A stretch of 32,000 bases of DNA, from positions 1,110,001 through 1,142,000 of the forward strand of contig NZ_CP010341.1 of NCBI RefSeq assembly GCF_000940845.1, written 5' to 3'. The position numbers and the translations under genes are program-made. Below are positions 3,028 through 28,730 of the stretch, one piece after another (position 1 is the stretch's first letter; each line of letters opens with the position of its first letter). The notes below the pieces were generated by a model. It was not told where the DNA came from, ran no database searches, and saw only the letters and a program-made list of their open reading frames with translations. The stretch comes from Propionibacterium freudenreichii subsp. freudenreichii (GTDB taxonomy: Bacteria > Actinomycetota > Actinomycetes > Propionibacteriales > Propionibacteriaceae).

Positions 3028-5207
3028 TCGGCCGTGCTGGTGGATGTCACCATCGGCGGATGGAGGTCCGTGATGCGGAAGCGCCGCCTGCGGGAGACCA
3101 TCAGCACGATGCATCCAAGGCACACCACCGTGATCGCCACCAGGATGGCGAGCGCTCCCCAGTAGGTGCTGTTGAGCCCACCCGAGATCACCACCCGGAA
3201 GGCATCGACGGAGTATTTCATCGGTGAGATGACGGCGAGCTTCTGGTAGATCGGCGGCAGCAACAGCGCGGGGAAGGTGCCACCGCAGGCCGGTAGTTGA
3301 AGGATCAGCAGAATGAGGTACACGGCCGTCTGCGGGGAGCCGAACACCAGCCTGAGCAGATAGGCCGGCGCCATGAAGGCCAAGGCCGTGACGACCAGCA
3401 GGAGCAGGAACTTCCATGGATGGACCGGGTTGAGTCCCAGGGTGACCCAGACGGTGAGCCCCATCAACAGGGATGCCGCCAGGGCGACGGTTGCCACCGG
3501 ACCGAAGCCCAGCATGGTGATCCGCAGCGGACTCGCGCGGCCGGTCAGGGCCCGCCCGGATATGGTGCGGACCACCAGGAAGATCGAGACGCCGGCGATC
3601 CACAGGGCAATAGAGAAGAACATGGGGGCAAGCCCACGTCCGTAGGCTCCGGCCGGGTTGTCGACGGTCTGGGTAACCGTGGCCGGCGACGCCATCACCT
3701 CTGCCATGGTGTTGCGCTGGTCCTCCGACAGGGTCGGGAGCTGGTCGGTGCCCTTCTGCAGTCCGGAGGCCAATGTCGCAGCGCCATTCGACAATTGCGG
3801 CATGGCCGTGTCAAGGCGCCCCAGGCCGTCGCTGAGCTGGTTGAGGCCCGAGACGGCGCCGGCTCCGGCCGACAGCAGGGTGTGCCCGGACGAGGTCGCC
3901 TGTCCCATGGCCGAGTTGAGTTGCTTGACGCCCTTGTCGGAGGTGTCGAGGGCGCCATTCAGCTGGTCGAGTCCGTGGTCAACCTGGGTGGCGGTGTCGC
4001 CGGCGCGGTCCAGGGCGTTGGTCAATGTCGTACCGGCCATCGCGAGGTTGTCCTTGTTGAGGTTCAGGTTCAGCCCCGCAGTCAGCTGCCCGGCCACCGC
4101 CAGGTTGCTGGTCACTGAGGTGTTCGCCGTGTCGGCCCCGCCCAATTGTGCCAGCAGGGACACATAGTCGGGATCGGTTGCGAGTTCGGGATGGTTGGCC
4201 AGCAACGAGGCGGCGGACTGCTTGGCCCCGGCCAGATCGGACTGCACGCTGATCACCGAGTTCCCGTTCGGGTTCTGCAATGACCCCGTGATCGACACGA
4301 GATGGGTGGCATCCTGCTGTAGTTGGGGCAGTTGCTTGTCGACGAAGTCGTTGACCGCCCCTGACGCATCCTTGGCCCCCGCCACGTCATTGCCGAGCTG
4401 CTTGCCGGAGGCGATGATGGTGGCCGCACCCGCCCGTGCCTGCCCGGCGGCCTGGCTGAGCGTCAGGGCGGACGCCGAGCTGTCATCCAGTGCGCCGTTC
4501 AGCGAATCCAGGGCAGGTTTCAGCCCCGAGGTGTCAGAGACTGCGGCGGCCACCTGATCCTTCATCTGGTGGACCCCGTCGGCCGCCTGTGACAGGCCAC
4601 TGTCGAGGGTCGCCGCCCCCTGTGCGGCGGTGTTGAGGCTCGACTTGATGGTGTTCAGGTTGACGAACAGCGACTGGAAATAGGTCTGCGACACGCTCTG
4701 GTCGAGCGTCTTGGCCAGGGTGTCGTCCATCTTCGAGGTGAGCAGGCCGATGATGTAGCCGTTCGCGTCATCGCGTTCCAGCGAGAGGGTTGCGCGCGCG
4801 GGCTTGTAGTCGCCGGCACCCACCAGCCTGGTGGAGAAGTCCTGCGGCACGGTGAGCACCGCGTAGTAATCGCCCTTGTGCAGGCCACGCTCGGCCTTCG
4901 CCCCATCGGTGCCCAGGAACTGCCAGCCGAAGGTGGGATTGTCACGCAGCGCCTGCTCGAAGTCCCGCCCGCCGCTGACCGTCTTATCGGCGAAGCTGGC
5001 CGGCTGGTCGTGGTTCACCACAGCGATCTTCACGCGATCGAGGTGGTTGTACAGGTCCCAGTTGGCGTGCAAGTAAACCCCGCCGTACAGCAGCGGGATG
5101 ATCAGGATGAAGAACAGCGCCAGGCGCGAGCGTCCCTTGAAGCGACGGAACTCGAACTGGATGAGCTGCCCGAAGGGCACGAAAAGATCTGATTTCTTCC
5201 ACGACAT
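3000..5207 (-). CDS. YhgE/Pip domain-containing membrane protein (ABC-2-type permease partner)
   Basis: 735-aa ORF. It has the YhgE/Pip N-terminal signature (FEFRRFKGRSRLALFFILIIPLLYGGVYLHANWD), a long Ala/Gln/Leu/Ser-rich coiled central region and a C-terminal cluster of TM helices. It starts 4 nt after the upstream ATPase gene. Confidence 0.85.
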   Translation of the reverse strand: MSWKKSDLFVPFGQLIQFEFRRFKGRSRLALFFILIIPLLYGGVYLHANWDLYNHLDRVKIAVVNHDQPASFADKTVSGGRDFEQALRDNPTFGWQFLGTDGAKAERGLHKGDYYAVLTVPQDFSTRLVGAGDYKPARATLSLERDDANGYIIGLLTSKMDDTLAKTLDQSVSQTYFQSLFVNLNTIKSSLNTAAQGAATLDSGLSQAADGVHQMKDQVAAAVSDTSGLKPALDSLNGALDDSSASALTLSQAAGQARAGAATIIASGKQLGNDVAGAKDASGAVNDFVDKQLPQLQQDATHLVSITGSLQNPNGNSVISVQSDLAGAKQSAASLLANHPELATDPDYVSLLAQLGGADTANTSVTSNLAVAGQLTAGLNLNLNKDNLAMAGTTLTNALDRAGDTATQVDHGLDQLNGALDTSDKGVKQLNSAMGQATSSGHTLLSAGAGAVSGLNQLSDGLGRLDTAMPQLSNGAATLASGLQKGTDQLPTLSEDQRNTMAEVMASPATVTQTVDNPAGAYGRGLAPMFFSIALWIAGVSIFLVVRTISGRALTGRASPLRITMLGFGPVATVALAASLLMGLTVWVTLGLNPVHPWKFLLLLVVTALAFMAPAYLLRLVFGSPQTAVYLILLILQLPACGGTFPALLLPPIYQKLAVISPMKYSVDAFRVVISGGLNSTYWGALAILVAITVVCLGCIVLMVSRRRRFRITDLHPPMVTSTSTADYAFSVRPR

Positions 5208-5211
5208 GGCG

Positions 5212-6024
5212 TCACTTGTCCGGGTTGGGTGTCTGGGTGGGGGAGGGGGCGGCGACCTGATCGTCGCCCATGGCCGCTCCGGCAGGCCGCCCGCGGGCGG
5301 TGAGGGGAGCCAGGGCGGCCTGCGCCAGGCTGATCGGGACGGGCTCGGAGCCGAGTGGTTCCACGACCTGGGGACGGTCGCTGCGCAGGCTCAGGCTGAT
5401 GGCAGTGGCTGGGATCAGGTCATCATCGACGACTGAGGCGACGATCACGGAGTCATCCAGGGTGGTCAGGCGCTCGAGGAGGGCGAACAGGAGCGACTGC
5501 TGGGAATGGGGCACGGTCATATCGGCATCGTCGATCACCACCACCCGGGAGGGCCGGATCATGGCCAGCGCCACTGAGGAGATTGCCTTCTCGATGGGCG
5601 TGAGCGATTCCAGCTCCACATGCTTCTCGATGCGGAAGCCAACGGTTTCCTCCATCGCGGCCACCCGGTCGGCTGCCAAGCGACGCGGGAATCCGTCCAG
5701 GAAGCAGCGCTCGGTGATCGACTCGGCCAAGGTGAGCCTGTCCTCGGGGCGTACATAGTCGCCCAATTGGGCGACGCTGGTCATCTGCATCGCCTCAAGC
5801 GGGTCATGGATCGCGTCGACGCCGTCGATGGTCAACAGCCCCGACAGGGGACGGAACCGGCCCGTCAGGGCCAGCAGCAGCGCGGACTTGCCCGAGCCGA
5901 GCGGCCCATGGACCATGCACAGCTGTCGGGCGTGGACATCAAGGTCGATGGGCCCGAAGATCCGACCCTGGCGTCCGCTGGACTCCAGTTCGCGGGCATG
6001 CAGCACCACGCGCTCGTCACTCAT
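5212..6024 (-). CDS. ABC-transporter ATP-binding protein with degenerate catalytic motifs
   Basis: Walker A is GPLGSGKS and the Q-loop is SVAQLG. The signature position reads LTPIEKA instead of LSGGQ. Walker B is VVVIDDAD, with no Glu after the Asp, and I see no H-loop His. The start overlaps the tetR stop by 4 nt. Confidence 0.8.
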   Translation of the reverse strand: MSDERVVLHARELESSGRQGRIFGPIDLDVHARQLCMVHGPLGSGKSALLLALTGRFRPLSGLLTIDGVDAIHDPLEAMQMTSVAQLGDYVRPEDRLTLAESITERCFLDGFPRRLAADRVAAMEETVGFRIEKHVELESLTPIEKAISSVALAMIRPSRVVVIDDADMTVPHSQQSLLFALLERLTTLDDSVIVASVVDDDLIPATAISLSLRSDRPQVVEPLGSEPVPISLAQAALAPLTARGRPAGAAMGDDQVAAPSPTQTPNPDK

Positions 6025-6635
6025 GCGGAAAGTCCCCCCAGGACTGAGGCGAGAACCGACCGGATGGCGGCCGGGGTGACCATGTGCGGTGCCGCCGCAT
6101 GCTCCAGCGCCAGGAGGCTGATCAACTCGAACACGGTCCAGATTGCCTCACGGGTGCGCTGGGGGCCCAGTCTTCGGGCCAGTGGGTGGCCGTCCAGCAG
6201 CCGCATGGCCTGTTCCGTGCGCTCCCGGAGCAACGTCGCATAGCTTTCTGCCACCTGCGGGTCGTGGACGGCCAGTTGCCGGAACTCGCCCAGGGCCACC
6301 TGCCAGGGGCCGGATTCGATGACGATCTGCGCGAAGCTGTCCGCAATGCGGTCGATGGCCGAGGCATCCCGGGCACCGTTGGCGAACATGGCGTCGAGCT
6401 CGGCGATCACCGGCGGGCTGAGGCGGTTGATGTTCTCGATGCAGATGGTGGAGAACAGCTCCGGCTTGGATTCGAAGTTGGAGTAGACCGCGCCCTTGGT
6501 GAAGCCGGCTGATTCGGCGATCTGGGTCATGCTGGCTCGGGCATAGCCGTGCGTGCGGAATGCCCGGCTTGCGGCGTCGATCACCTTGCGGCGTACCTGT
6601 TGGCGTGTCGGACGATGCGCCACGTGGAGGGGCAC
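6021..6635 (-). CDS. TetR/AcrR-family transcriptional regulator
   Basis: N-terminal HTH VIDAASRAFRTHGYARASMTQIAESAGFTKGAVYSNFESKPELF. GTG start at 6635, preceded by GGGAGG with a 7-nt spacer. Confidence 0.92.
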   Translation of the reverse strand: MPLHVAHRPTRQQVRRKVIDAASRAFRTHGYARASMTQIAESAGFTKGAVYSNFESKPELFSTICIENINRLSPPVIAELDAMFANGARDASAIDRIADSFAQIVIESGPWQVALGEFRQLAVHDPQVAESYATLLRERTEQAMRLLDGHPLARRLGPQRTREAIWTVFELISLLALEHAAAPHMVTPAAIRSVLASVLGGLSA

Positions 6636-6662
6636 AGCGAGACCTCCCTGAGAGGAAAACGT

Positions 6663-6681
6663 TCGATACCGGCGGTATCGA
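6663..6681. promoter_or_regulatory. Perfect palindrome TCGATACC-GGC-GGTATCGA; candidate TetR operator
   Basis: 8-bp inverted arms with a 3-bp spacer, read directly from the sequence, 28-46 nt upstream of the tetR GTG. This is the only intergenic region of that operon. Confidence 0.5.
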
Positions 6682-6728
6682 GATGTCCACGGTACAACGC
6701 CCGGCGGGGATCCCGTGAGCGCGGCGGC

Positions 6729-7550
6729 TCAGGCGAACAATGCCAGGGTCAACAAATAGGCCAGGCCGCTCATCTCGACCAGGGACCCGAAGGTGTCGCC
6801 GGTCAGTCCTCCGAGCCGCGCCAGGATATGGCGGCGCCACGCCACGCCGAAGACCCAGCTGGCCAGGCAGGCACACACCGCCACGAGGGCGGCCCGCCAG
6901 CCGAAGAGCAGCCATCCACTGCCCGCGGCGATCACCGCGGCGATCACTGAGGCGACCACGATCGTCGCAGGGTGCGTCTTTCCGGCGAAGAGCGCTCCGA
7001 ACCCCTTCTTGTGGGCGCTCGGAATCCATCGTCCGGTGGCGGACAGGGCGCTGACGCGCGCCACCATGGGCATTGTCACCAGCAGCCAGACGCCACGCCA
7101 GCCATCAAGGTGTCCTGAACCGCCTGCCGCGATCTCCAACGCCAGCACGAGGATGATGGCGGTGACGCCCATGGGCCCGATGTCTGATTGGCGCATGATG
7201 GTCAGGGCCTCGTGGGCCGGCTTGCGGGAGCCCAGGCCGTCGGCGGTGTCGGCGAGTCCGTCGAGGTGCAGGAAGCCGGTGCACAGGGCCAGGATTGCCA
7301 GGCCTGCTGCGATTGCCAGTGGCTGGCCGCCCCCCGCGACGGTGACGATGGCGCAGCCGAGTCCGGCGATCAGGCCCAGTCCGAGGCCGACCCACGGCAT
7401 CGAGGCGATCGCCCGCACGGCGAGTCGCTCATCCACCTCGGCCACCACGGGTGCGGGCAGCACCGTGAACAGTCCCCAGGCAGCCAGCAGTCCATTGCGG
7501 GTGGCCACGTCAGATCGCGTCCTTCGGTTGGGGGTCCGTGCCGGCGCCAT
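6729..7550 (-). CDS. cobS: Adenosylcobinamide-GDP ribazoletransferase (cobalamin synthase)
   Basis: GFLHLDGLADTADGLG and LTGDTFGSLVEMSGLAYLL motifs in a polytopic membrane protein. An alternative GTG start at 7508 lies 1 nt after the cobU stop; the ATG at 7550 would overlap cobU by 41 nt. Confidence 0.9.
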   Translation of the reverse strand: MAPARTPNRRTRSDVATRNGLLAAWGLFTVLPAPVVAEVDERLAVRAIASMPWVGLGLGLIAGLGCAIVTVAGGGQPLAIAAGLAILALCTGFLHLDGLADTADGLGSRKPAHEALTIMRQSDIGPMGVTAIILVLALEIAAGGSGHLDGWRGVWLLVTMPMVARVSALSATGRWIPSAHKKGFGALFAGKTHPATIVVASVIAAVIAAGSGWLLFGWRAALVAVCACLASWVFGVAWRRHILARLGGLTGDTFGSLVEMSGLAYLLTLALFA

Positions 7551-8181
7551 GAGGGCCTCCCGGTCGCGGTGGCAGGCTCAGCGCCCGTCCGGCGACGCAC
7601 AGCAGTACCTCGTCGCAGGCGTCCGCGACGCTGGCGTTGAGGATTCCCAGCCAGTCACGGAAGGTGCGCCCTGCCTGCGTGGCGGGCACCACGCCGGAAC
7701 CGACCTCGTTGGTGACCAGCACCACGCGGCGCGGGGAGCCGGCGACCGCAGTGGCCAACTCATCGATGCGGTGCTGCAGCTCGGGGCGGGCCTGCTCCGG
7801 GTGCTGCCAGGCGTCGGTGACGTCCAGCTCGCGGGTGAGCCACACGCCCAGGCAATCGACCAGGGCGGGGGAGCCGTCGTCGGACAGCACCTGCGCCACG
7901 TCAAGGGTCTCCACGGTGTTCCAGCTCTTCGGGCGGCGCGCGACGTGGGCGGCGATGCGGGCCATCCACTCGGGGTCGTCAGGGTTGCGTTGCGAGGTGG
8001 CGATGTAGTCGACGTGGTCGAACGACCCCAGCAGCGCCTCGGCATAGCTGGACTTCCCGCTCCGGGCGCCCCCGGTGACGAGGGTTCGTGCCGGACGTTG
8101 CCGGGCACCGAGGCCTGACAGCTGATCGAGCAGCCTTCGGGACTCGGGACTGTCAGGAACGTCCACGACGATGCGGGTCAT
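7510..8181 (-). CDS. cobU: Bifunctional adenosylcobinamide kinase / adenosylcobinamide-phosphate guanylyltransferase
   Basis: P-loop LVTGGARSGKSSYAE, then VLVTNEVGSGVVP. The ATG at 8181 overlaps the upstream gene's TGA as ATGA (8178-8181). The 160 upstream codons of track ORF 7510..8661 are a shadow over the preceding gene. Confidence 0.9.
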   Translation of the reverse strand: MTRIVVDVPDSPESRRLLDQLSGLGARQRPARTLVTGGARSGKSSYAEALLGSFDHVDYIATSQRNPDDPEWMARIAAHVARRPKSWNTVETLDVAQVLSDDGSPALVDCLGVWLTRELDVTDAWQHPEQARPELQHRIDELATAVAGSPRRVVLVTNEVGSGVVPATQAGRTFRDWLGILNASVADACDEVLLCVAGRALSLPPRPGGPHGAGTDPQPKDAI

Positions 8182-10763
8182 CTGATGTCTCCTTGTGGTG
8201 GTCGCATGGGGTGCTGCGCTGTGTCCAGTGCGTCGATGGTGCGGGCCAGGGCAGCGACGAACGCGTCGCTGATGTCCGGGTGGCGAACCGCGAGCCGCAA
8301 CCAGCCCGCGCCCAGGCCGGGGAAGCTCTCGCCGCTGCGCACGGTGAAGCCGAGCGTCCGCAATCCCGCACGAAGCCCACCGGGCGGGTGGGCGCGCAGG
8401 TCGACTAGGACGAAGGGGGCCCTGGCCTCCCCGACGGTCTGGATGCCGATCCCGGCCAGGCGGGCCACCAGGTGTCGGCGGTCCTGCGCCGCCTGTCGGG
8501 CATCTGAGGTGGCCTGCTCCACGGCGCGTGGCGTGGAGCATTCGCGGGCGGTGACCAGGGCGGGGGTGGAGATGGGCCAACAGGGCTGTTCGTGCGCCAG
8601 GACGCGAATGAGCGCGGGATCCCCGACCACATATCCGATCCGCAGCCCCGGGACGCTCCAAGTCTTCGTGAACGAGCGGGTGACCAACAGGCCATCCATG
8701 CGTGCCCCGATGAGGCTCTCGGGCTCGCCCGGCACGGCGTCCATGAATGCCTCGTCAACCACCACCACGCGTCCGGGCCGGCACAACGCGCGCAGGCTCG
8801 CCGCCGAATGCAGCACGCCGGTGGGATTGGTCGGATTGCCGATGACCACCATGTCGGCCCTGGGGTCCAGCAGTTCGTGATCGAACTGGAAGCCATCCGA
8901 GGCATGGAGCACCAGGCGGCCGACCGGGCGCCCGGCGTTGCGCAGGGCCACCTCTGGTTCGGTGAACTGGGGATGCACCACGACCGCCCAGCGCGGGGAG
9001 AACCCGTGGGCGATCAGGCTGAACGCCTCCGAGGACCCGGCCGTGAGCAGTACCTGGTCGGGGTTGACGCCATGGCGCAGTGCCACCGCACGGGTCGCTT
9101 CGCGCTGATCGGGGTAGTGGGCCCACTGGTCGCTGGAGGCGACGATGCGCTCCACGAGCCAGGCCGGAGGTCGCACATCGCGCACGTTCACCGCCAAGTC
9201 GACCAGGCCGGGCAGCACATCGCGATCCCCGTGATGGGTGAGGTCGGGCGCTGCGGACAACGCATCTCCCGGCGTCGTGGCGGCAGGCCGGGGGGAGTGA
9301 TGGCCGGTGTGCCCATATTCGCTCGCCGCCCGGGCGAAGCGTTGCGCCAGTACCGGACTCCCTGCCCAGTGCAGGTGCTGGTAGGAGGCGTGGACGCTGG
9401 GCGCGGAACCGGGGGTCGGGGCGACCAGCACCCCCTCGGGTCGGTTGCCCCCCGTCGGGGTCTCCACGTCCCACGCCAACCGTTGGTCGCCCAGCCGTTG
9501 TGGTCCGGGGTCGCGGTCGTAGGGGGGCGTGTCCAGGGTGGTGCGGTGGAACTCATGGGCCCGATAGCGCTCCCCGGCGCGCATCAGGAAGCTGTCGTTG
9601 GCGGCGCGGGCGTGGTGGTAGCCGATGGTCAGGCGCGGCGTCATGGACGAGTCGGCGTCGACCACCCCGGCCATCGCCAGTCCATCCAGGCTGCGGCACA
9701 GGTAGAGCAGCCCCGCACACTCGGCCACCGTCGGCAGGCCCTCGGACACGCGTGAGGCGATTTCAGCGCCCAGGGAGGTGTTGCCGGCGAGCGCCTCGGC
9801 GTGCTCCTCGGGGAAACCACCCCCCAGGTACAGGCCGGACACATCGGCCGGAAGGCCCCGGGCGGTGAGCGGATCGAAGGCCGTCACCCGGCAGCCGGCC
9901 GCCTCCAGCAGTTCTGCGGTTTCGGTGTACCGGAAGGTGAATGCGGGACCCGAGGCCATGGCGATGACCGGACGCCCCGGTACCGGTTCGACCTCTGCGG
10001 CGGGATCCCAGGGATCGACGGCCAGGTCAGGGGCCCCACCGGCGATCGTGGCGATGGCGTCGAGGTCGAGGTGTGCGGCGACGAGCTCACCGGCCTGCTG
10101 CACGATGCCGATCGCGTCACCCTGCTCGTCGGCCGTGACCAGTCCCAGGTGGCGTGAGCCCACGGCCACCCGCGTGCTTTTCGGCAGAGCCCCCAGCACC
10201 GGCAGGCCGACACGTGCGCAGCCCCGGGTGATCTCGTCGACCACGCGGGCACCCATCACCCGATTGAGGATGACGCCGGCCACATGGATGCGGGGATCGT
10301 AGCTGGCCAGGCCATGGCACAGGGCTGCGGCGGTACGGGCACTGTGTGAGCCGTCGACCACGAGCAGCACGGGGGCATCGAGCAGCCTGGCGATATGGGC
10401 CGATGAGCCAAAACCGGCGGGGTCATCGGTGCCGTCGGGCCACGCGCCGAGCTTGCCGTCGAACATGCCCATCACGCCTTCGACGACCGAGATGTCCGCG
10501 GGTTCGGGATGCAGCGCGCCATGGGCGAACAACGGCGCAATGCGCTCGGGCCCGCACAAATAGGGATCCAGGTTGCGGCCGGGGCGACCGCAGGCCAGTG
10601 CGTGATAGCCCGGATCGATGTAGTCGGGGCCCACCTTGAATCCGGCCACGCTGCGCCCCGAGGCCCGCAGGGCCGCCATCAGGCCGATGGCCACGGTGGT
10701 CTTTCCCTGGCTGGACGCGGGGGCCGCGATGAGCACCCGCGGAAGAGCCGTCGCCGTCACCAT
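8178..10763 (-). CDS. cbiA: Fusion protein: cobyrinic acid a,c-diamide synthase (CbiA/CobB) N-terminal half plus L-threonine-O-3-phosphate decarboxylase-type aminotransferase (CobD/CobC) C-terminal half
   Basis: One uninterrupted 861-codon ORF. The N-terminal half has APASSQGKTTVAIGLMAAL and the GATase Cys in VAECAGLLYL. The C-terminal half has HHGD..LVDLAVNV..PPAW, GNPTNPTG and SFTKTWSVPGLRIGY (PLP Lys). The linker is SEYGHTGHHSPRPAATTPGDALSAAPD. Confidence 0.85.
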   Translation of the reverse strand: MVTATALPRVLIAAPASSQGKTTVAIGLMAALRASGRSVAGFKVGPDYIDPGYHALACGRPGRNLDPYLCGPERIAPLFAHGALHPEPADISVVEGVMGMFDGKLGAWPDGTDDPAGFGSSAHIARLLDAPVLLVVDGSHSARTAAALCHGLASYDPRIHVAGVILNRVMGARVVDEITRGCARVGLPVLGALPKSTRVAVGSRHLGLVTADEQGDAIGIVQQAGELVAAHLDLDAIATIAGGAPDLAVDPWDPAAEVEPVPGRPVIAMASGPAFTFRYTETAELLEAAGCRVTAFDPLTARGLPADVSGLYLGGGFPEEHAEALAGNTSLGAEIASRVSEGLPTVAECAGLLYLCRSLDGLAMAGVVDADSSMTPRLTIGYHHARAANDSFLMRAGERYRAHEFHRTTLDTPPYDRDPGPQRLGDQRLAWDVETPTGGNRPEGVLVAPTPGSAPSVHASYQHLHWAGSPVLAQRFARAASEYGHTGHHSPRPAATTPGDALSAAPDLTHHGDRDVLPGLVDLAVNVRDVRPPAWLVERIVASSDQWAHYPDQREATRAVALRHGVNPDQVLLTAGSSEAFSLIAHGFSPRWAVVVHPQFTEPEVALRNAGRPVGRLVLHASDGFQFDHELLDPRADMVVIGNPTNPTGVLHSAASLRALCRPGRVVVVDEAFMDAVPGEPESLIGARMDGLLVTRSFTKTWSVPGLRIGYVVGDPALIRVLAHEQPCWPISTPALVTARECSTPRAVEQATSDARQAAQDRRHLVARLAGIGIQTVGEARAPFVLVDLRAHPPGGLRAGLRTLGFTVRSGESFPGLGAGWLRLAVRHPDISDAFVAALARTIDALDTAQHPMRPPQGDIR

Positions 10764-11359
10764 TCGATACCCGCCTGTCCTCGTTCTCCCTTGCCAAAGG
10801 GATGTTTGACGTTGTCCATGGACGTGACGATGTCGGCGATCCCGATGATTCCGGCGGGGCAGTTGCGTCCGGTGATCACCACATGTTGCGTGCCGGGACG
10901 ATGTGCCAGGTCGTCAGCGACCTCGTCGACATCCAGCCATCCCTTGTTGAGCACATGGGCGAATTCGTCGAGGATGTAGAGCCGGTGGGTCTGTGCGGCG
11001 AGCAGGGTGCGCACGTGGGCCCAGCCCGCGGCCGCCATGGCTGCCTGGTCGGTGCCCTCGGTCGCCCTCAGCCACGACCAGCCGGATCCGAGTGATTGCC
11101 ATTCCACCGGTCCGCCGACTCCGGTCGTCCGATGGGCCTGGTCGAGCTGTGCATAGGCCTGCTGCTCGCCGGTGTGCCAACGTCCCGACTTGATGAACTG
11201 GAAGACCCCGATCGACCAGCCCTGCGCCCAGGCCCGCAGTCCCATGCCGAATGCGGCGGTGGACTTGCCCTTGCCGTTCCCGGTGTTCACGATCAGTCGG
11301 GGGCGGTGGCGCAGTTCGGCGGTGGTCGGCTCGGTGCGCTGCGGCGCGGATCCGCTCAT
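10757..11359 (-). CDS. cobO: Cob(I)yrinic acid a,c-diamide adenosyltransferase
   Basis: LIVNTGNGKGKSTAAFGMGLRA..GVFQFIK and LDEF..VLNKGWL motifs of the CobA/CobO/BtuR family. The ATG overlaps the cobQ stop as ATGA at 11356-11359. Confidence 0.92.
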   Translation of the reverse strand: MSGSAPQRTEPTTAELRHRPRLIVNTGNGKGKSTAAFGMGLRAWAQGWSIGVFQFIKSGRWHTGEQQAYAQLDQAHRTTGVGGPVEWQSLGSGWSWLRATEGTDQAAMAAAGWAHVRTLLAAQTHRLYILDEFAHVLNKGWLDVDEVADDLAHRPGTQHVVITGRNCPAGIIGIADIVTSMDNVKHPFGKGERGQAGIEW

Positions 11360-12801
11360 CGGGCCAGTCCCGTCATGGCGAGCATCGCGTCGACGTCGAC
11401 ATATTCGGCCATGGCCGTCGACAGCGTCCGGATCATCGTGGCGCGCAGCTGCTGGTATCCCGGCCGGGCGTCGTCCGGCTCCCAGGTAGACCCGGTGTTG
11501 CGGGCGACCATGTGCAGGAAACGCCGCCGGAAGCCGTCATTCTCCAGACTGCCGTGCAGCATCGTGCCGAACGAATTCCCGCTGCGGACGCCGTCCAAGA
11601 AGGCCTCGCCGCCGTCCACCTCGAAACGGCCGTGGTGGATCTCATAGCCATCCACGGCGAGTTCATCGAAGTGATACTGCGCGGTGCGAACGACCTTCTC
11701 GGCGTCGAAGCGGAAGCGGGCGGGCAGCACTCCCAGTCCGGGCACTGATCCCGCGCTCGACTCAATATCGTCGTCGATGGTGTTGGCCATCATCTCGAAG
11801 CCGCCACAGATTCCCAGGATCGGCTTGTCCTCGCGGCGACGCTGGACGATCGCCTGCGCGATGCCGCGTTTGCGCAGCCAGTCCAGGTCATCGACGGTCG
11901 CGCGGCTGCCGGGCAGCACCACCAGGTCGGCACGCGCGCAGGTGGCGGGATCGGCGGTCACCTGCACTTCGACGCCGGGCTCGGTCGCCAGGGCGTCAAT
12001 GTCGGTTGAGTTCGAGATCCGGGGCAGCCGCACGGCGGCGACCACCAGCCGGTCCCCGGCGCCGCTCTGGGCGGGCCACCGGTCCACCTGCAGGGCGTCC
12101 TCGCCATCGAACCAGACGTCCTCCAACCAGGGCATCACGCCCAGGTTCGCCAGTCCGGTGCGCGTGGTGATCTCCTGCAGTCCGGGCTCCAGGAGTGCCC
12201 CGTCGCCACGGAACTTGTTGATGATGTAGCCCTTCAGGAGCGCGCGGTCCTCGGCCTCCAGCAGCGCCCACGTGCCGTAGAGGCTGGCCAGGACCCCGCC
12301 ACGATCGATGTCCCCGATGATCACCGTGGGCAGCCCGAAGTGACGGGCCAGGCCCATGTTGACGTAGTCGCCCGCCCGCAGGTTGATCTCCGCCGGCGAG
12401 CCGGCGCCCTCGCAGACGATGAGCTCGTGGCGCGAGGCCAGGTCGGAGTAGGCGTCGTAGGCCGCCTCGGCGAGGTGCTTGCGCCCGGTGGCGTACTCCC
12501 CGGCGTCGAGCTCCCCGTCGGGACGGCCCATCAGCACGATGAAGCTGCGCCGATCCGTGCCCGGCTTGAGGAGCACGGGATTCATGGCGGCCTCGGGGGT
12601 GACGCCGGCGGCGGTCGCCTGCAGGTACTGTGCGCGTCCGATCTCGGCGCCGTCGGGGCAGACCATCGAATTGTTCGACATGTTCTGGGACTTGAACGGC
12701 GCGACATCGATGCCGCGCTGGCGAAGTGCGCCGCACAGGCCCGTGACGAGTGCTGACTTCCCGGCGTCGGAGCTGGTGCCGGTGAGCAGGATTCCGGTCA
12801 T
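11356..12801 (-). CDS. cobQ: Cobyric acid synthase
   Basis: MTGILLTGTSSDAGKSALVTGLC..PFKSQNMSNNS, with the GATase Cys in ILGICGGFEMM. The ATG at 12801 overlaps the cbiB stop as ATGA at 12798-12801. The 91 upstream codons of the track ORF are a shadow. Confidence 0.93.
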   Translation of the reverse strand: MTGILLTGTSSDAGKSALVTGLCGALRQRGIDVAPFKSQNMSNNSMVCPDGAEIGRAQYLQATAAGVTPEAAMNPVLLKPGTDRRSFIVLMGRPDGELDAGEYATGRKHLAEAAYDAYSDLASRHELIVCEGAGSPAEINLRAGDYVNMGLARHFGLPTVIIGDIDRGGVLASLYGTWALLEAEDRALLKGYIINKFRGDGALLEPGLQEITTRTGLANLGVMPWLEDVWFDGEDALQVDRWPAQSGAGDRLVVAAVRLPRISNSTDIDALATEPGVEVQVTADPATCARADLVVLPGSRATVDDLDWLRKRGIAQAIVQRRREDKPILGICGGFEMMANTIDDDIESSAGSVPGLGVLPARFRFDAEKVVRTAQYHFDELAVDGYEIHHGRFEVDGGEAFLDGVRSGNSFGTMLHGSLENDGFRRRFLHMVARNTGSTWEPDDARPGYQQLRATMIRTLSTAMAEYVDVDAMLAMTGLAR

Positions 12802-13829
12802 CGGGATGCCTTTCGTGATGGCGAATGTGTCGGGGCCTTGCGTGCTGACGAATGTGCGCGGATGAGCTGCCCGATTCCCAGGCAGGCCCCGGCCGCCAGG
12901 GCCGTGGCTGCGGCGGTGACCACGCGGACCAGTCGGGCACCGTCGCGCACCTGCCCGGCACGGGGCCGGTGGCCGTTGCCCAGCAGCCCACGGTGCTCGA
13001 CCCTTCCCCCGGGGTAGACATTGCGTCCCCCCAATTGGACGCCGAGTGCGCCGGCCCAGGCGGATTCGCACCATCCGCCATTGGGGCTTGGATGGTTGCG
13101 GGCGTCACGGGCGACGATGCGAGCGGTGGTGACGACCCTCCCGCCCACGGAGGGTGCGCAGATCGCACCCAGGATGCCGGTGAGGCGTGCCGGGATCCAG
13201 TCAAGCCCGTCGTCCAGGCGGGCTGCGCACTTGCCGAAGTGCTCGAAGTGCTCGTTGTGGTGTCCGACCATCGCGTCCAGGGTGTTCGACGCGCGATGGA
13301 TCAGCATGCCGGGAATGCCCGCGACCGATCCCCACCACAGGGATGCCACGCCCGAGTCGGCCGTGTTCTCTGCCAGGGACTCGATGGTTCCGCGGGCCAA
13401 CTCCTGTTCCGGCATGGTGTCGGGGATGCGTCCGCACAGGTGGGGCAACCGGTCCCGGGCGGCGGACAGGTCGTCGCCTTCCAGCTCGTCGGCCATCTGC
13501 TCGCCCTCGGTGGCCAGCGACTGTGAGCCGATCACCAACCATCCTGCGGCCGCCGTTGCTGTCGCATGGGCCAGCGGATGGCGGCGGGTCGCGGCCTCCA
13601 CGGCAACGCCGAGGGTGGCGACCGGCAGGAGGGCCACCACGAGATAGGCCGCGCCCTGACCGACAGAGTCGCGCCACATCTTCTTCTCCAGCCAGCCCGC
13701 CCATGTGCCAAACCAGGCCACGGGATGCCAGGGATTCGCCGGATCGGGGATGAGCCGATCCGCCGTCACAGCACTGATCAGGCCGACGGCACGGCTGCCC
13801 CAGCCGTGGTCGTCCGCGGCTAGGCTCAC
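12798..13829 (-). CDS. cbiB: Adenosylcobinamide-phosphate synthase (CbiB/CobD family membrane protein)
   Basis: AVGLISAVTADRLIPDPANPWHPVAWFG..., GTIESLAENTADS and HPSPNGGWCESAWAGALG are CbiB hallmarks. The start is uncertain, either GTG 13829 or ATG 13871. The upstream 225 codons of track ORF 12798..14504 are antisense to a real plus-strand gene. Confidence 0.88.
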   Translation of the reverse strand: MSLAADDHGWGSRAVGLISAVTADRLIPDPANPWHPVAWFGTWAGWLEKKMWRDSVGQGAAYLVVALLPVATLGVAVEAATRRHPLAHATATAAAGWLVIGSQSLATEGEQMADELEGDDLSAARDRLPHLCGRIPDTMPEQELARGTIESLAENTADSGVASLWWGSVAGIPGMLIHRASNTLDAMVGHHNEHFEHFGKCAARLDDGLDWIPARLTGILGAICAPSVGGRVVTTARIVARDARNHPSPNGGWCESAWAGALGVQLGGRNVYPGGRVEHRGLLGNGHRPRAGQVRDGARLVRVVTAAATALAAGACLGIGQLIRAHSSARKAPTHSPSRKASR

Positions 13830-13832
13830 CGC

Positions 13833-14411
13833 ATGCTTGATCGCGGCATCGATTTCGCCCTGGTGCGCCATGGGGAGTCCACCGGGAACATTGGTGGACG
13901 CGTGCTGGGGCACGAACTGGGTCCCGAGCTCACCACCCTGGGCCGGACGCAGGCCCGCGGCGCGGCCCATGGCCTGACCCGGTGGCATGCCGACATGTTG
14001 TGGAGCAGCGACATGGTTCGCGCCCGAAGCACCGCCCAGGAAATTGCCCAGACCACCCGCCTGCCGCTGAACTGCACGGCCCTGCTGCGTGAGCAGGACC
14101 ACGGCGCGATGGATGGGCTGCCAGTGGGCGATCTTGTGGCGCAGCCGACGCCCGCCGGTCGCGAGATCACCGAGGTCCGGTGGGGTGGCGGGGAGAGCAT
14201 CGCCGATGTCTATGCGCGCCTGCGGCTCTTCGTCATGATGGTGGCGGCGCGTGGTGCCCGGCGCGTGGTCGTCGTCGGACACGGCGACATGGCCTGTGCC
14301 TTCACGTCGATGCTCGCCGGGCTGGGACATCGGGACGTCGCTTGGGACCGCCTTGCCCATGGGCAGGTGCGTTACCTGGGTTGGGACGGCAGGGCGCTGC
14401 TGCCCTCGTGA
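13833..14411 (+). CDS. Histidine-phosphatase (phosphoglycerate-mutase-like) family protein; possible alpha-ribazole-5'-phosphate phosphatase given its cob context
   Basis: The N-terminal catalytic motif FALVRHGESTGN and the second His motif VVVVGHGDMA are both present. The assignment as a CobC-type phosphatase rests on neighbourhood only. Confidence 0.8.
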   Translation: MLDRGIDFALVRHGESTGNIGGRVLGHELGPELTTLGRTQARGAAHGLTRWHADMLWSSDMVRARSTAQEIAQTTRLPLNCTALLREQDHGAMDGLPVGDLVAQPTPAGREITEVRWGGGESIADVYARLRLFVMMVAARGARRVVVVGHGDMACAFTSMLAGLGHRDVAWDRLAHGQVRYLGWDGRALLPS

Positions 14412-14426
14412 GCCTGTGGGCTCGGA

Positions 14427-14482
14427 CAAGAACCTCAAATCCACGGGCCGTCCTTCGCGGTGCACGCGCAGGCAGCTCGTGG
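14427..14482 (-). terminator. Compound hairpin with a U-rich tail on the minus strand; candidate riboswitch expression platform and possibly a bidirectional stop for the convergent phosphatase gene
   Basis: The minus-strand RNA reads CCACGAGCUGCC-UGCGCGUGCACCGCGAA-GGACGGCCCGUGG, followed by AUUUGAGGUUCUUG. The U-rich tail exists only in the minus orientation. Confidence 0.5.
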
Positions 14483-14515
14483 GGCTGACCTTGCGCCGGG
14501 GCAATGTGGGGACAC

Positions 14516-14596
14516 GTCCACAGTCGACCGGACTCGGGGCCGGGCCCCATCACCGTTGCGGGACAGTGCCGGATTCCCACCGGCTTCGCTGCGGAC
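14516..14596 (-). promoter_or_regulatory. Cobalamin (B12) riboswitch-like aptamer
   Basis: The minus-strand RNA reads GUCCGCAG CGAA GCCGG-UGGGAAU-CCGGC A CUGU-CCCGCA-ACGG UGA UGGGGCCCGGCCCC GAGUCCGGUCGA CUGUGGAC. It matches the conserved core GAA.CCGGUG..AAUCCGG..C.GUCCCGC.AC.GU and has a B12-box-like GAGUCCGG. An 8-bp helix GUCCGCAG/CUGUGGAC (one G.U pair) closes it. Confidence 0.7.
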
Positions 14597-14617
14597 GCGC
14601 GCTGGCCGAGGCCAGCA

Positions 14618-14644
14618 CATTGACCCTAGTACACCGGGTCAATG
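14618..14644 (-). other. 9-bp inverted repeat CATTGACCC(N9)GGGTCAATG, 26 nt downstream of the otsA stop; possible otsA terminator or a promoter/operator for the riboswitch leader
   Basis: Read directly from the sequence. A second small hairpin GCTGG-CCGAGG-CCAGC sits at 14601-14616. Neither has a U-tract, and a TAGGGT (TANNNT) hexamer lies inside the repeat on the minus strand. Confidence 0.3.
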
Positions 14645-15860
14645 CCGAGGCGGGCGGTTGTTCTGCGGCTCACACGGGCCGTTCCGTGCCCAGATCGGTC
14701 AGGAAGCTGTTGGCCCACGCGTCGATGTCATGGCGGAAGACTTGCTTGCGCATGGAGCGCATGCGGCGCACATGGTTCGCATGGGTGTCGCCGGCGGCGC
14801 GCAACAGCTGGTTCTTCATGCCGTTGAGGTCGTAGGGATTGACCATGTAGGCCTGTTTCAGCTCCAGTGAGGCGCCCGCGAATTCGCTGAGCACCAGGGC
14901 ACCGGCGTCCGAGTCGTGGGAGGCCACGTACTCCTTCGCCACCAGGTTCATGCCATCGCGCAGCGGGGTCACCACCATCACATCGGCGGCCCGGTACATC
15001 GCGGCCAGGGCCATCTTGGGGTAGCTGGCGTGGCGGTACTCGATGGGGGAGCGCCCGATGCGCCCGACGGACGAGTTGATGCGTCCGACCATCTCATCGA
15101 TGATGCTGCGCAACACCTGGTAGCGCGCCACGCCCTCGCGGGTCGGGGTGGCGATCTGCAGGTAGACATTGCGCATCGGGTCGAGTTGCCCGGAGGTGAA
15201 CAATTCGCCGAAGGCCCGCACGCGATGACGCAGGCCCTTGGTGTAGTCGAGCCGGTCGACGCCCAGGAAGATCTTGTCGGGATTGCCCAGGTCCTCGCGG
15301 AGCTGCTCGGCCTCGGCCCTCGCCTGTGGCGTGCGCGACAGGTCGAGGATCTCCTGCGCGTCAATGGAGATGGGATAGGCACGCGCTAGGATCACTCGGC
15401 CGTCGGGGGAGAAGATGCGGTCGCCCTGGGTGCGCATGCCGGCCAGGCGACGGACCAGGTGCGCGAAATTGCGGGCCGACCCGGGGTCCTGGAAACCGAT
15501 CTGGTCGGAGCCGAGCAGTCCACTGATCACCTGGTAGCGCCATGGCAGTTGCATGAACAGCTCCGAGGGCGGAAAGGGAATGTGCAGGAAGAACCTGATC
15601 TTCAGGTCGGGACGCATTTGACGCAGGAGCGCGGGCACATTCTGCAATTGGTAGTCCTGGACCCACACAGTGGCGCCGGGTGCGGCGACCTCCGCCGCAG
15701 CGGTGGCGAACCGTTGGTTCACCTCCATATAGCTGTCCCACCATTCACGGTGGTATTCAGGGTGCTCGACGCAGTCGTGGTAGAGCGGCCAGAAGGTGGC
15801 GTTCGACATGCCCTCGTAGTACTCATTGAATTCCTGGGCCGACAGGTCCACGGGCATGAT

Positions 15861-15868
15861 GCCATAGC
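15861..15868. repeat. Target-site duplication GCCATAGC (left copy) of the IS in otsA
   Basis: Identical 8-mer at 17308..17315, directly abutting the other IS end. Confidence 0.9.
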
Positions 15869-17307
15869 GGGTCTTCTCAGATGAGGGTGTAGGTCGGCCG
15901 GGCGCGTCGGTCCGCAGATAGACGTCGAGGTCTCCCGACGATGGAGGTTCCTACGCCATCCATCCGAAAGACCTCGACGTGTCCGACGCTACCCCGCCGG
16001 CCGGCTTCGGCCGCCCTGACCTGACCGCCTTCGCTCGACTCGACGGCCTCGGTCTGAGCGTGACCGGACAACGACTTGAACCGGATCGTGCGGTCCTCGC
16101 GTGCCGCGTGGTGGAACCAGATCAGTGGTGCCGACGGTGCGGCAGCGAAGGCGCTGCTCGTGACACCGTGATCCGGCGGTTGGCCCACGAGCCGCTGGGC
16201 TGGCGACCGACCGTGCTGGAAGTTGTAGTGCGCCGCTACCGCTGTGCCGACTGCGGACACGTGTGGCGCCAAGACACCAGCGCCGCGGCGGAGCCACGCG
16301 CGAAGCTCTCGCGCACCGGGCTGCGGTGGGCGCTGGAAGGGATCGTGGTCGCACACCTCACCGTCGCCCGTGTCGCCGAGGGACTCGGGGTCGCGTGGGA
16401 CACCGCCAACAACGCGGTCCTGGCTGAAGGCAAGCGGCTGCTGATCAACGACCCCACGCGGTTTGAGGGCGTGAAGGTCATTGGCGTCGATGAGCACGTC
16501 TGGCGCCACACCAGGCGTGGCGACAAGTACGTCACCGTGATCATCGACCTCACCCCGGTCCGCGATGGCGCCGGCCCAGCAAGGCTGCTGGACATGGTCG
16601 AGGGCCGGTCGAAGGCGGCGTTCAAGACCTGGCTCGCCGACCGCGACGACGCCTTCCGTGACGCGGTCGAGGTGGTCGCGATGGACGGCTTCACCGGGTT
16701 CAAGACCGCCGCTGCAGAGGAGATCCCGGACGCGGTCACGGTGATGGATCCCTTCCACGTCGTGCGCCTGGCCGGTGACGCCCTCGACAGGTGCCGGCGC
16801 CGGGTCCAACTCGCGATCCACGGGCACCGTGGGTTCAGGGACGACCCGCTCTACAAGTCGCGGCGCACGCTGCACACCGGCGCGGACCTGCTCACCGACA
16901 AGCAGAGCGACAGGCTACGCGCGCTGTTCGTTGATGACGCTCACGTCGAGGTCGAGGCGACCTGGGGTGTCTACCAGCGCATGATCGCCGCCTATCGCCA
17001 CGAGGACCGGCAACGTGGCCGCGAGCTCATGGAGAAGCTGATCACCGACCTCAGCGCCGGCGTCCCCAAGGTGCTCACCGAGCTCACCACCCTGGGCCGG
17101 ACCCTGAAGAAGCGAGCCGCTGACGTGCTCGCCTACTTCGAACGACCCGGCACCAGCAACGGGCCGACCGAGGCGCTCAACGGACGGCTCGAACACCTGC
17201 GCGGCTCCGCACTCGGGTTCCGCAACCTGACCAACTACATCGCCCGAAGCCTGCTCGAGACCGGCGGCTTCAGACCCCAACTCCTACACCCCCGATTGGG
17301 ATGAGCC
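15869..17307 (+). mobile_element. ISL3-family insertion sequence, copy 1 (1439 bp)
   Basis: Terminal inverted repeats GGGTCTTCTCAGATGAGGGTGTAGG and GGCTCATCCCAATCGGGGGTGTAGG (17/25 identical, GGCTC-type ends). It carries a single transposase ORF, has 8-bp direct repeats as expected for ISL3, and sits inside otsA. Confidence 0.92.
15979..17304 (+). CDS. ISL3-family transposase
   Basis: 441 aa with a GTG start. N-terminal zinc-finger pairs (CRRCG...CADCG) are followed by VIGVDEHVWRH..YVTVIIDL..VAMDGFTGFK..NGPTEALNGRLEHLRG, typical of DDE_Tnp_ISL3. The TGA stop lies inside the right inverted repeat. Confidence 0.93.
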   Translation: MSDATPPAGFGRPDLTAFARLDGLGLSVTGQRLEPDRAVLACRVVEPDQWCRRCGSEGAARDTVIRRLAHEPLGWRPTVLEVVVRRYRCADCGHVWRQDTSAAAEPRAKLSRTGLRWALEGIVVAHLTVARVAEGLGVAWDTANNAVLAEGKRLLINDPTRFEGVKVIGVDEHVWRHTRRGDKYVTVIIDLTPVRDGAGPARLLDMVEGRSKAAFKTWLADRDDAFRDAVEVVAMDGFTGFKTAAAEEIPDAVTVMDPFHVVRLAGDALDRCRRRVQLAIHGHRGFRDDPLYKSRRTLHTGADLLTDKQSDRLRALFVDDAHVEVEATWGVYQRMIAAYRHEDRQRGRELMEKLITDLSAGVPKVLTELTTLGRTLKKRAADVLAYFERPGTSNGPTEALNGRLEHLRGSALGFRNLTNYIARSLLETGGFRPQLLHPRLG

Positions 17308-17315
17308 GCCATAGC
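17308..17315. repeat. Target-site duplication GCCATAGC (right copy)
   Basis: Identical to 15861..15868. Confidence 0.9.
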
Positions 17316-17759
17316 CATCGAAGGTGAAGGGCTCGATATGTTCGTCGGCCGAGCCGACCCAGCCGACCCAGGTGCCACCATGGTCCTTCATCACGGGGAT
17401 GAGGGCCGTCACCAGGCCGCCGGGAGACAGGGCCCAGCCCGAGGAGTCGTCGTCATTCTGTACGCGATCTACCGGAAGCCTGTTGGCCACCACGACAAAC
17501 TGTGATGTGCCGGCGGCAGGGGCATCGCGCGGTACGGGATCTTCGGTACGTCCATCGTCGGCGGGCGCACTGGGGATGGATTGTTGATCCTCACTCACGA
17601 CACAGACCTCCTCGGCTGTTCTCTTGGTCTGAGGCTACCAATCCGTGCGCCCACGAATTCTGCGACGGCGGGCTGCGCAGGGCTCCCGGGGATTTCTCCC
17701 GGAGCGTCCGGCGGCTCGCGTGACACCGGTTGGGGCAGTGTTCTGGCACAGTGGATGGC

Positions 17760-18692: not shown

Positions 18693-18766
18693 GGGGCGTT
18701 AGCTCAGCAGGTCAGAGCAGGGGACTCATAATCCCTGGGTCGTGGGTTCGAGCCCCACACGCCCCA
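18693..18766 (+). tRNA. tRNA-Met (anticodon CAT), elongator type
   Basis: Hand-folded cloverleaf: acceptor GGGGCGT/ACGCCCC, D stem GCTC/GAGC, anticodon stem GGGGA/TCCCT with loop CTCATAA, T arm GTGGG-TTCGAGC-CCCAC, discriminator A. Position 1:72 is paired and A31:T39 breaks the three-GC initiator signature. A tRNA-Ile2 (lysidine) identity cannot be excluded. Confidence 0.9.
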
Positions 18767-28657: not shown

Positions 28658-28730
28658 TCCCTGGTAGCTCAATTGGCAGAGCATCTGACTGTTAATCAGA
28701 GGGTTACTGGTTCGAGTCCAGTCCGGGGAG
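28658..28730 (+). tRNA. tRNA-Asn (anticodon GTT); CCA encoded at 28731-28733
   Basis: Hand-folded cloverleaf: acceptor TCCCTGG/CCGGGGA (one G.T pair), D stem GCTC/GAGC, anticodon stem TCTGA/TCAGA with loop CTGTTAA, T arm ACTGG-TTCGAGT-CCAGT. Confidence 0.92.

Follow-up and report, generated by a model that had tools for sequence, protein, structure and literature searches.

The locus considered here raises a simple question, namely how a cobalamin (vitamin B12) riboswitch can act on an operon from which it is separated by a complete gene on the opposite strand. In the window, i.e. the whole 32,000-nucleotide (nt) stretch of Propionibacterium freudenreichii DSM 20271 DNA that was analysed (genome coordinate = window position + 1,110,000), the aptamer lies on the minus strand, the next genes on that strand are cbiB and the cob operon, as their Pfam matches confirm, and the interval is filled by a histidine phosphatase gene on the plus strand. 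We report that this arrangement, together with a start site downstream of the aptamer, is conserved, and that the reading frame opened there is locked in register with the phosphatase gene and leads into cbiB. Our data suggest, with a probability that we put at roughly 0.55, that the riboswitch is a translational OFF switch which reaches cbiB via this frame, about 200 codons long and overlapping the phosphatase gene in antisense.

The aptamer (14513..14599, minus strand) is that of a true cobalamin riboswitch, compact in type and lacking a P6 extension. Among the families of Rfam clan CL00101 used here (RF00174 and RF01482, with their curated gathering scores), it matches RF00174 (Cobalamin) at 14528-14584 with 33.5 bits, above the gathering score of 31.5 (E-value 4.6e-5), and RF01482 (AdoCbl) at 14513-14599 with 49.6 bits, just below the gathering score of 50 (E-value 2.7e-8; model positions 16-105); the RF00174 gathering score is also passed by the relatives L001-L003. 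An earlier reading of the window made from the letters alone (the sequence-only reading) had placed an unusually compact cobalamin aptamer here, and both the place and the compactness are borne out, since the peripheral extension that occupies 62 model positions in RF00174 is reduced to 7 nt. The same reading had paired CUGU with ACGG in a P5-like stem, and this part has to be given up, as ACGG has CCGG in the B12 box for its partner in the covariance models. In an alignment of eight Propionibacterium aptamers (28 consensus pairs) all helices are kept and the core is invariant, with changes on both sides of the pair at five of the 28 positions, falling within outer P1 and the tip of the GGGG/CCCC hairpin (P6 tip). 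Class II (peripheral-extension-less) cobalamin riboswitches, which we take to be those represented by env8 and Rfam RF01482/RF01689, have the same four-way-junction core without the P6 extension, and the likeness here is one of the core at the sequence level.

The aptamer is not a new find, having already been published as the P. freudenreichii "cbiB riboswitch". Its sequence is that of B12el_cbiB of DSM 20271 (genome 1124460-1124609, window 14460-14609), which is listed in Deptula et al. 2017 (PMC5644110, supplementary file 28) and which goes back to Vitreschak et al. 2003. In its passage on this element, which has the same sequence as that in the window, a review (PMC8123684) describes it as compact ('short right arm') and as answering several cobalamin forms; there, a 213-bp leader fragment is presented as a green fluorescent protein sensor that responds to adenosyl-, cyano-, hydroxo- and methylcobalamin (AdoCbl, CNCbl, OHCbl and MeCbl; Zhu et al. 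2015).

What separates the aptamer from cbiB is a gene of the phosphoglycerate-mutase family (RM25_0972, 13833..14411, plus strand), which is intact, as the sequence-only reading had maintained: it matches PF00300 (E-value 4.4e-32), it is 99% identical to an annotated P. freudenreichii protein, its catalytic residues are invariant in 22 homologues, and the phase of GC content at third codon positions turns to the plus-strand frame at approximately 13830. The proposal that it is cobC-like survives only in part. The best-scoring NCBIfam family is ribazole_cobC (TIGR03162), with 71.4 bits against an equivalog cut-off of 162.9, and PspA scores nearly as high (69 bits); membership of the PF00300 superfamily is established, and CobC is a guess from context. 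The order otsA (minus), riboswitch (minus), phosphatase (plus) and cbiB-cobQ-cobO (minus) is found in 12 distinct sequences, including P. cyclohexanicum, P. ruminifibrarum, several uncultured Propionibacterium lineages and a metagenomic lineage (L134) in which the phosphatase is only 38% identical and the layout is still kept. One P. freudenreichii-like sequence (L087, GCA_040769685.1) was excluded; its cbiB and cobQ are fragmented and its "phosphatase" is called at 260 amino acids (aa), probably owing to assembly frameshift errors.

Downstream of the aptamer the leader ends in a GC-rich hairpin (14441..14483, minus strand, minimum-free-energy folds) whose 3' arm holds a Shine-Dalgarno (SD) sequence, GAAGGA (14451..14456, read 14456-14451), and a GTG start codon (14442..14444). 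The GTG was found by a scan from the aptamer to the phosphatase stop in which no reading frame was assumed. In all lineages its distance from the aptamer core is +133 to +156 nt, and it is the sole strong combination of SD and start codon opening a long open reading frame (ORF) before the phosphatase stop; minor alternatives are an in-frame TTG two codons after the GTG, an out-of-frame ATG opening 58 codons (L002) and a 3-codon ORF (L003/L082). The SD is present as GAAGGA, GAAGGG or GAAAGGGAG in 12/12 sequences, 4-9 nt ahead of the GTG (6 nt in the window), and forms the best duplex with the anti-SD sequence (-7.6 to -10.1 kcal/mol) anywhere from the aptamer to the phosphatase stop. This start site is conserved across lineages in which phosphatase identity falls to 38-66%, and in the window it is embedded in the hairpin helix a short way 3' of the aptamer, as in translational OFF platforms.

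Sequences outside the genus point the same way. In a survey of metagenomic sequences having the same aptamer core, 85 of the 89 distinct members with enough downstream sequence carry, at +102 to +216, a start codon that has an SD and opens an ORF of 60 aa or more, and CCTCC...GGAGG pairs of anti-SD and SD are frequent in this family. One metagenomic sequence, L195, has the identical aptamer type followed by the same 11-mer, CGCGAAGGACG, and a GTG that opens cbiB directly, with no phosphatase between them (VSRLLGMTLGVLADAIFGDPKTHHPVAGFG). Because CGCGAAGGACG-GTG begins cbiB directly in L195, the start site that follows the riboswitch is best taken to be the one that cbiB had ancestrally.

In the window the frame opened at GTG 14444 comprises 205 codons (13830..14444, minus strand), is the codon-for-codon antisense of the phosphatase gene, and runs on in frame into cbiB to form an ORF of 548 codons ending at 12798. 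The GTG stands in the phosphatase antisense frame in every one of the 12 sequences, and the phosphatase C-termini stay aligned. The spacers between the GTG and the phosphatase stop measure 6, 30, 33, 45, 51, 81, 93, 111, 138 and 168 nt, all of them stop-free and multiples of three; were insertions and deletions neutral, ten such lengths would be expected by chance with a probability of roughly (1/3)^9. At its far end the frame meets cbiB in one of two ways. It is continuous with cbiB in 6/12 sequences (the window, L081, L002, L088, L089 and L134), the fused ORF having 518-556 codons in five of these six, while the L089 contig ends before the stop; in the other six its stop overlaps the cbiB ATG, as ATGA in L085, L001, L115, L003 and L082 and as TAATG in L091. 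The product has no Pfam family at E-value ≤1 and the spacer-encoded peptide is poorly conserved; selection seems to act on the passage of ribosomes and not on the protein. Predicted tryptic peptides of the 205-residue product (13830..14444, minus strand) include FLSEPTGSR and IDIGDALPATPPDLGDLATGGR. Between the close relatives L082 (3582-3750) and L003 (4567-4705) the spacer differs by a 30-nt tandem duplication, amounting to ten in-frame codons (GGQLLLTNPS).

The aptamer, the layout, the start site, the locking of the frame and the junction types are thus observed computationally, and from them the following mechanism may be proposed. A compact cobalamin riboswitch resembling class II would act as a translational OFF switch on a leader of approximately 175 nt, transcribed from a promoter about 30 nt upstream (-10-like TAGGGT) and ending in the hairpin with GAAGGA and GTG 14444. 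An inverted phosphatase gene would have been inserted between the ancestral start codon and the body of cbiB, in the one register that lacks antisense stops. When B12 is low, ribosomes would initiate at GTG 14444, read some 200 antisense codons and so bring translation to cbiB, by in-frame fusion in P. freudenreichii and through the ATGA or TAATG stop/start overlap in other lineages. When B12 is high, the ligand would occlude the start site, initiation would be blocked and 0.6 kb of leader would stay untranslated, such that expression of cbiB-cobQ-cobO-cobB would fall by loss of coupling and probably also by Rho-dependent polarity. The riboswitch lies on the same strand as these B12 genes, and its start site opens the frame that leads to them.

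The promoter of this transcript is a candidate supported by conservation. A block at 14622..14632 on the minus strand, GTACTAGGGTC, contains the -10-like TAGGGT (14628->14623), and as GTACTAnnnTC it is near-invariant, at constant spacing upstream of P1, across the nine leaders from Propionibacterium in which the region is covered; of the block, L134 retains TAGGGT alone (CACTAGGGTG). In actinobacteria the -10 consensus is usually of the TAnnnT type, and the variable positions of the block are the NNN of TAnnnT, which is the basis for assigning it a promoter role, with transcription predicted to start near 14616-14618. A consensus scan gave no match to a sigma-70 promoter. Between the predicted start and P1 lies a 5' leader hairpin, GCUGGCC-UC-GGCCAGC (14601..14616, minus strand), which the consensus fold predicts and in which two pairs have both partners changed across six species.

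The phosphatase would be made from its own promoter, transcribed head-on against the operon transcript. A -10-like TAGGCT (13821..13826, plus strand) stands 6 nt ahead of the phosphatase ATG, and the site, read on the minus strand as AGCCTA(G/A) or AGACTAG, is kept in all lineages including L134. The short distance suggests a leaderless mRNA starting at the phosphatase ATG, from a promoter inside the 5' end of cbiB. Head-on transcription would mean that phosphatase expression may rise when the switch is off, and the geometry makes antisense or head-on interference with the phosphatase possible. One may go further, tentatively, and with less confidence than in the OFF switch itself: about 580 bp might be translated on both strands, the minus-strand product being a riboswitch-gated leader or extension that relays control to cbiB; the inverted gene might have lodged after the cbiB start, with the frame long under selection and the expression of the cob operon and the phosphatase reciprocal.

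The published form of cbiB (adenosylcobinamide-phosphate synthase; RM25_0971, 12798..13829, minus strand; PF03186, E-value 1e-83; above the cut-off of NCBIfam cobal_cbiB) starts at GTG 13829. A second proximal start, at 13869..13883, consists of GGTGGA (13883-13878) and ATG 13871 and corresponds to RefSeq WP_052809112.1 (357 aa), a form that overlaps the 5' end of the phosphatase gene by 39 nt on the opposite strand; its ATG is the antisense of the codon for the catalytic His13 of the phosphatase. Public P. freudenreichii CbiB annotations vary accordingly between 293, 307, 343, 357 and 520 aa, and an older table with the start codon of cbiB at 285 nt suggests that the long antisense-frame ORF was formerly taken as cbiB. 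A gap of 3 nt separates the phosphatase ATG (13833) from the annotated cbiB GTG (13829), and in relatives the two genes start within approximately 40 nt of each other, which leaves no intergenic room for a separate cbiB promoter.

Several observations weigh against a translational OFF switch acting through the antisense frame. Constrained partition-function folding with P1 forced or blocked, carried out without kissing-loop or tertiary contacts, gave no consistent shift in the accessibility of the SD and start codon across eight leaders. Propionibacterium sp. GCA_047719395.1 (L084) has the same otsA, phosphatase and cbiB layout and lacks the riboswitch. Independent proximal cbiB start sites are plausible, namely GGTGGA with ATG 13871 (RefSeq) and GAAGGAG with an ATG in L085. 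The proposal also predicts for P. freudenreichii a CbiB with a 205-residue N-terminal extension of no known family, which might be harmful to a membrane protein, and duplex formation with the phosphatase mRNA could impede translation. Nor is the stop-free state of that frame telling, since it needs only the absence of TTA, CTA and TCA codons, which is common at this GC content: zero such codons would be expected in a phosphatase-type gene with a chance of 0.25-0.74 in each of four species, and they are absent in about two thirds of high-GC homologues elsewhere, the riboswitch-less L084 among them. Avoidance of antisense stops was accordingly dropped as decisive proof of translation. Finally, a literature search found no transcription-start or antisense-RNA data for P. 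freudenreichii. A kissing interaction between L5 and the SD (UCCCGC with GCG-AA-GGA) was an idea formed by eye; the parts are too invariant for covariation and it is not claimed.

Some of these points would fit an alternative in which the riboswitch tunes the length or abundance of a minus-strand transcript that represses the phosphatase, in the way of AspocR with pocR in Listeria, while the operon uses a promoter of its own inside the phosphatase gene together with the proximal starts. Those starts exist, the operon of L084 runs without a riboswitch, and the phosphatase has its own conserved -10-like promoter. On the other hand, in L195 the homologue of the SD-GTG starts cbiB directly, the locking of the frame and the ATGA/TAATG junctions would go unexplained, and a search that was not rigorous identified no conserved cbiB promoter inside the phosphatase gene. 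We regard this alternative as unlikely, if the best placed of those considered.

The sequence-only reading had put forward a different idea, that the hairpin (which it placed at 14482->14441) is an intrinsic terminator and that the read-through product is an antisense RNA. In its full form, the riboswitch would control termination at 14483-14441 and the U-rich tail, and read-through would yield an untranslated RNA coupling control of the operon to interference with the phosphatase. Its geometric premise stands, as any read-through transcript is antisense to the phosphatase and this holds in all 12 sequences, and in P. freudenreichii a strong hairpin is indeed followed by AUUUGAGGUUCUUG. The hairpin is real, but it does not look like a terminator: a consensus scan found no terminator-like site in 13500-15000, and the U-rich tail (AUUUGAGGUUCUUG) is confined to P. 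freudenreichii, occurring in none of the other 11 sequences, so that a conserved intrinsic-terminator platform was rejected. Moreover, the hairpin holds a conserved SD and start codon, frame-locked to the frame downstream, which makes the read-through RNA probably a translated mRNA and not simply an antisense RNA; in the aptamer family, start sites at this distance are overwhelmingly the rule, and related Actinobacteria are said to have few canonical intrinsic terminators (PMC11260477). Control by termination at this hairpin thus appears improbable.

A further possibility shares the data of the preferred explanation and makes the same sequence predictions. Here control at GTG 14444 would set Rho-dependent termination in the antisense stretch, with the frame product irrelevant and the junctions by-products of keeping ribosomes on the RNA; a weakly conserved spacer peptide and a product of no known family agree with this, and coupling of riboswitches to Rho is documented in other bacteria, going by the references cited in PMC11260477. 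The same study judged Rho not to explain the comparable dependence on uPPE2 in Mycobacterium tuberculosis, and we consider such serial mechanisms to have little probability. That the riboswitch and start site form a decaying, functionless relic is highly improbable, for even if the element has been lost from L084, or was never there, the core of the aptamer hardly varies, its helices covary, the start site is kept despite divergence of the phosphatase to 38-66% identity, and a B12-responsive reporter is described in the review passage cited above (PMC8123684).

The translational OFF switch acting through the antisense frame has to be set beside what is on record. The aptamer is known; its conserved antisense-nested layout has not been discussed previously in the literature searched. 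The published element is called 'upstream of cbiB', and in the literature examined the intervening phosphatase on the opposite strand is not mentioned. The same literature on the cbiB element, outside which the primary texts of Vitreschak 2003 and Zhu 2015 lie, contains nothing on the SD-GTG, the frame-locking or the junction types. More generally, no discussion of a gene nested antisense in a riboswitch-controlled frame at cbiB was found in the literature searched.

Two other systems share with this locus a transcript that begins with a riboswitch and runs antisense to a protein-coding gene. In Listeria monocytogenes a B12 riboswitch reportedly heads AspocR, which is antisense to pocR, and the ubiG operon of Clostridium acetobutylicum is said to have an S-box antisense RNA; both RNAs are described as non-coding and as regulating only the sense gene. 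The minus-strand read-through transcript in the window is fully complementary to the phosphatase gene, but its conserved start site contradicts the term 'non-coding', and unlike either RNA it leads into a biosynthetic operon.

By analogy, the closest precedent is found in M. tuberculosis, where an upstream ORF, uPPE2, is under the control of the ppe2 B12 riboswitch and overlaps PPE2 at an AUGA (Kipkorir et al. 2024, PMC11260477). The ppe2-cobQ-cobU operon opens with PPE2, whose expression depends on translation of uPPE2; a minor uPPE2-PPE2 fusion product is also made (PMC11260477). There too a compact actinobacterial B12 OFF switch controls the start site of an upstream ORF. However, uPPE2 is short and non-overlapping, whereas the frame predicted in Propionibacterium spans 200-260 codons and is the exact antisense of a functional gene; and uPPE2 is joined to PPE2 by an overlap, whereas in half of the Propionibacterium lineages the frame continues into cbiB as one fused ORF.

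P. freudenreichii serves industry as a food-grade source of vitamin B12, and the steps gated by this riboswitch (cbiB, cobQ, cobO and cobB) come late in the pathway. If the proposed mechanism is correct, deletion or replacement of the leader in engineering of the switch would also affect the phosphatase, and the public cbiB start annotations (293 to 520 aa) would need experimental resolution. The locus would in addition be a natural, conserved and easily tested example of a functional gene nested antisense in a regulated frame, for which there are few well-evidenced cases, and the relay of riboswitch and upstream ORF described in M. tuberculosis would extend, in a far more extreme form, to another actinobacterial family.

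The operon downstream of cbiB continues on the minus strand with cobQ (11356-12801), cobO (10757-11359) and an 861-aa fusion of cobB/cbiA with an aminotransferase (8178-10763), all supported by Pfam and published annotation, the fusion having CbiA, GATase_3 and class I/II aminotransferase domains; the aminotransferase domain is possibly a threonine-phosphate decarboxylase. The cobQ start overlaps the cbiB stop as ATGA (12798-12801), the same coupling signature as at the junction of the antisense frame with cbiB in other lineages. In the published annotation of strain JS16/DSM 20271, CobD (1122798..1123829, minus), a protein of the phosphoglycerate-mutase family (1123833..1124411, plus) and an otsA truncated by an insertion sequence (1124670..1125857, minus) match the ORFs in the window.

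Among the lineages with the conserved layout, those whose antisense frame is fused to cbiB have the phosphatase motif GESTGN, the antisense of which gives an SD-like GGTGGA ahead of the ATG or GTG derived from the His codon. It is GESEGN in L001 and L003, the two lineages with an ATGA overlap that were translated, and the SD-like hexamer is missing there and in L085. Phylogeny could account for this split, as could co-adaptation between the two strands. In L084 (3560-3680) the otsA and phosphatase stops are 36 nt apart, and the antisense frame, in frame with cbiB, starts at a GTG overlapping the otsA stop (GTGA), which suggests coupling of the frame to otsA.

In Tessaracoccus (L004-L006, approximately 4000-7600) the phosphatase, cbiB and cobQ all run in one direction, no riboswitch was found upstream of them even at a relaxed threshold, and a cobalamin riboswitch lies just 3' of cobQ on the same strand, where it presumably controls the next gene. 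An origin of the Propionibacterium layout by simple inversion within a riboswitch-phosphatase-cbiB operon is unsupported, given the lack of an upstream riboswitch in Tessaracoccus and given L195, which favours an ancestral riboswitch-cbiB arrangement. The compact aptamer core is widespread in metagenome contigs (L092-L210), many of them from soil, and usually stands 100-215 nt upstream of genes whose products start with lipoprotein-type signal peptides or resemble membrane proteins; in L100 it is followed by cobO and cobQ.

Upstream of the riboswitch, otsA is interrupted by an insertion sequence in the region 14670-17600, leaving a 3' part (14670..15857, minus) and a 5' fragment (17284..17598, minus) with a transposase of the IS204/IS1001/IS1096/IS1165 family between them (approximately 16228..17304, plus); published annotations give an intact otsA of 1482 nt in other P. 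freudenreichii strains. Two tRNA genes were predicted on the plus strand with Rfam, at 18693-18766 (70.1 bits) and 28658-28730 (69.2 bits), the former being tRNA-Met(cat) in the published genome annotation.

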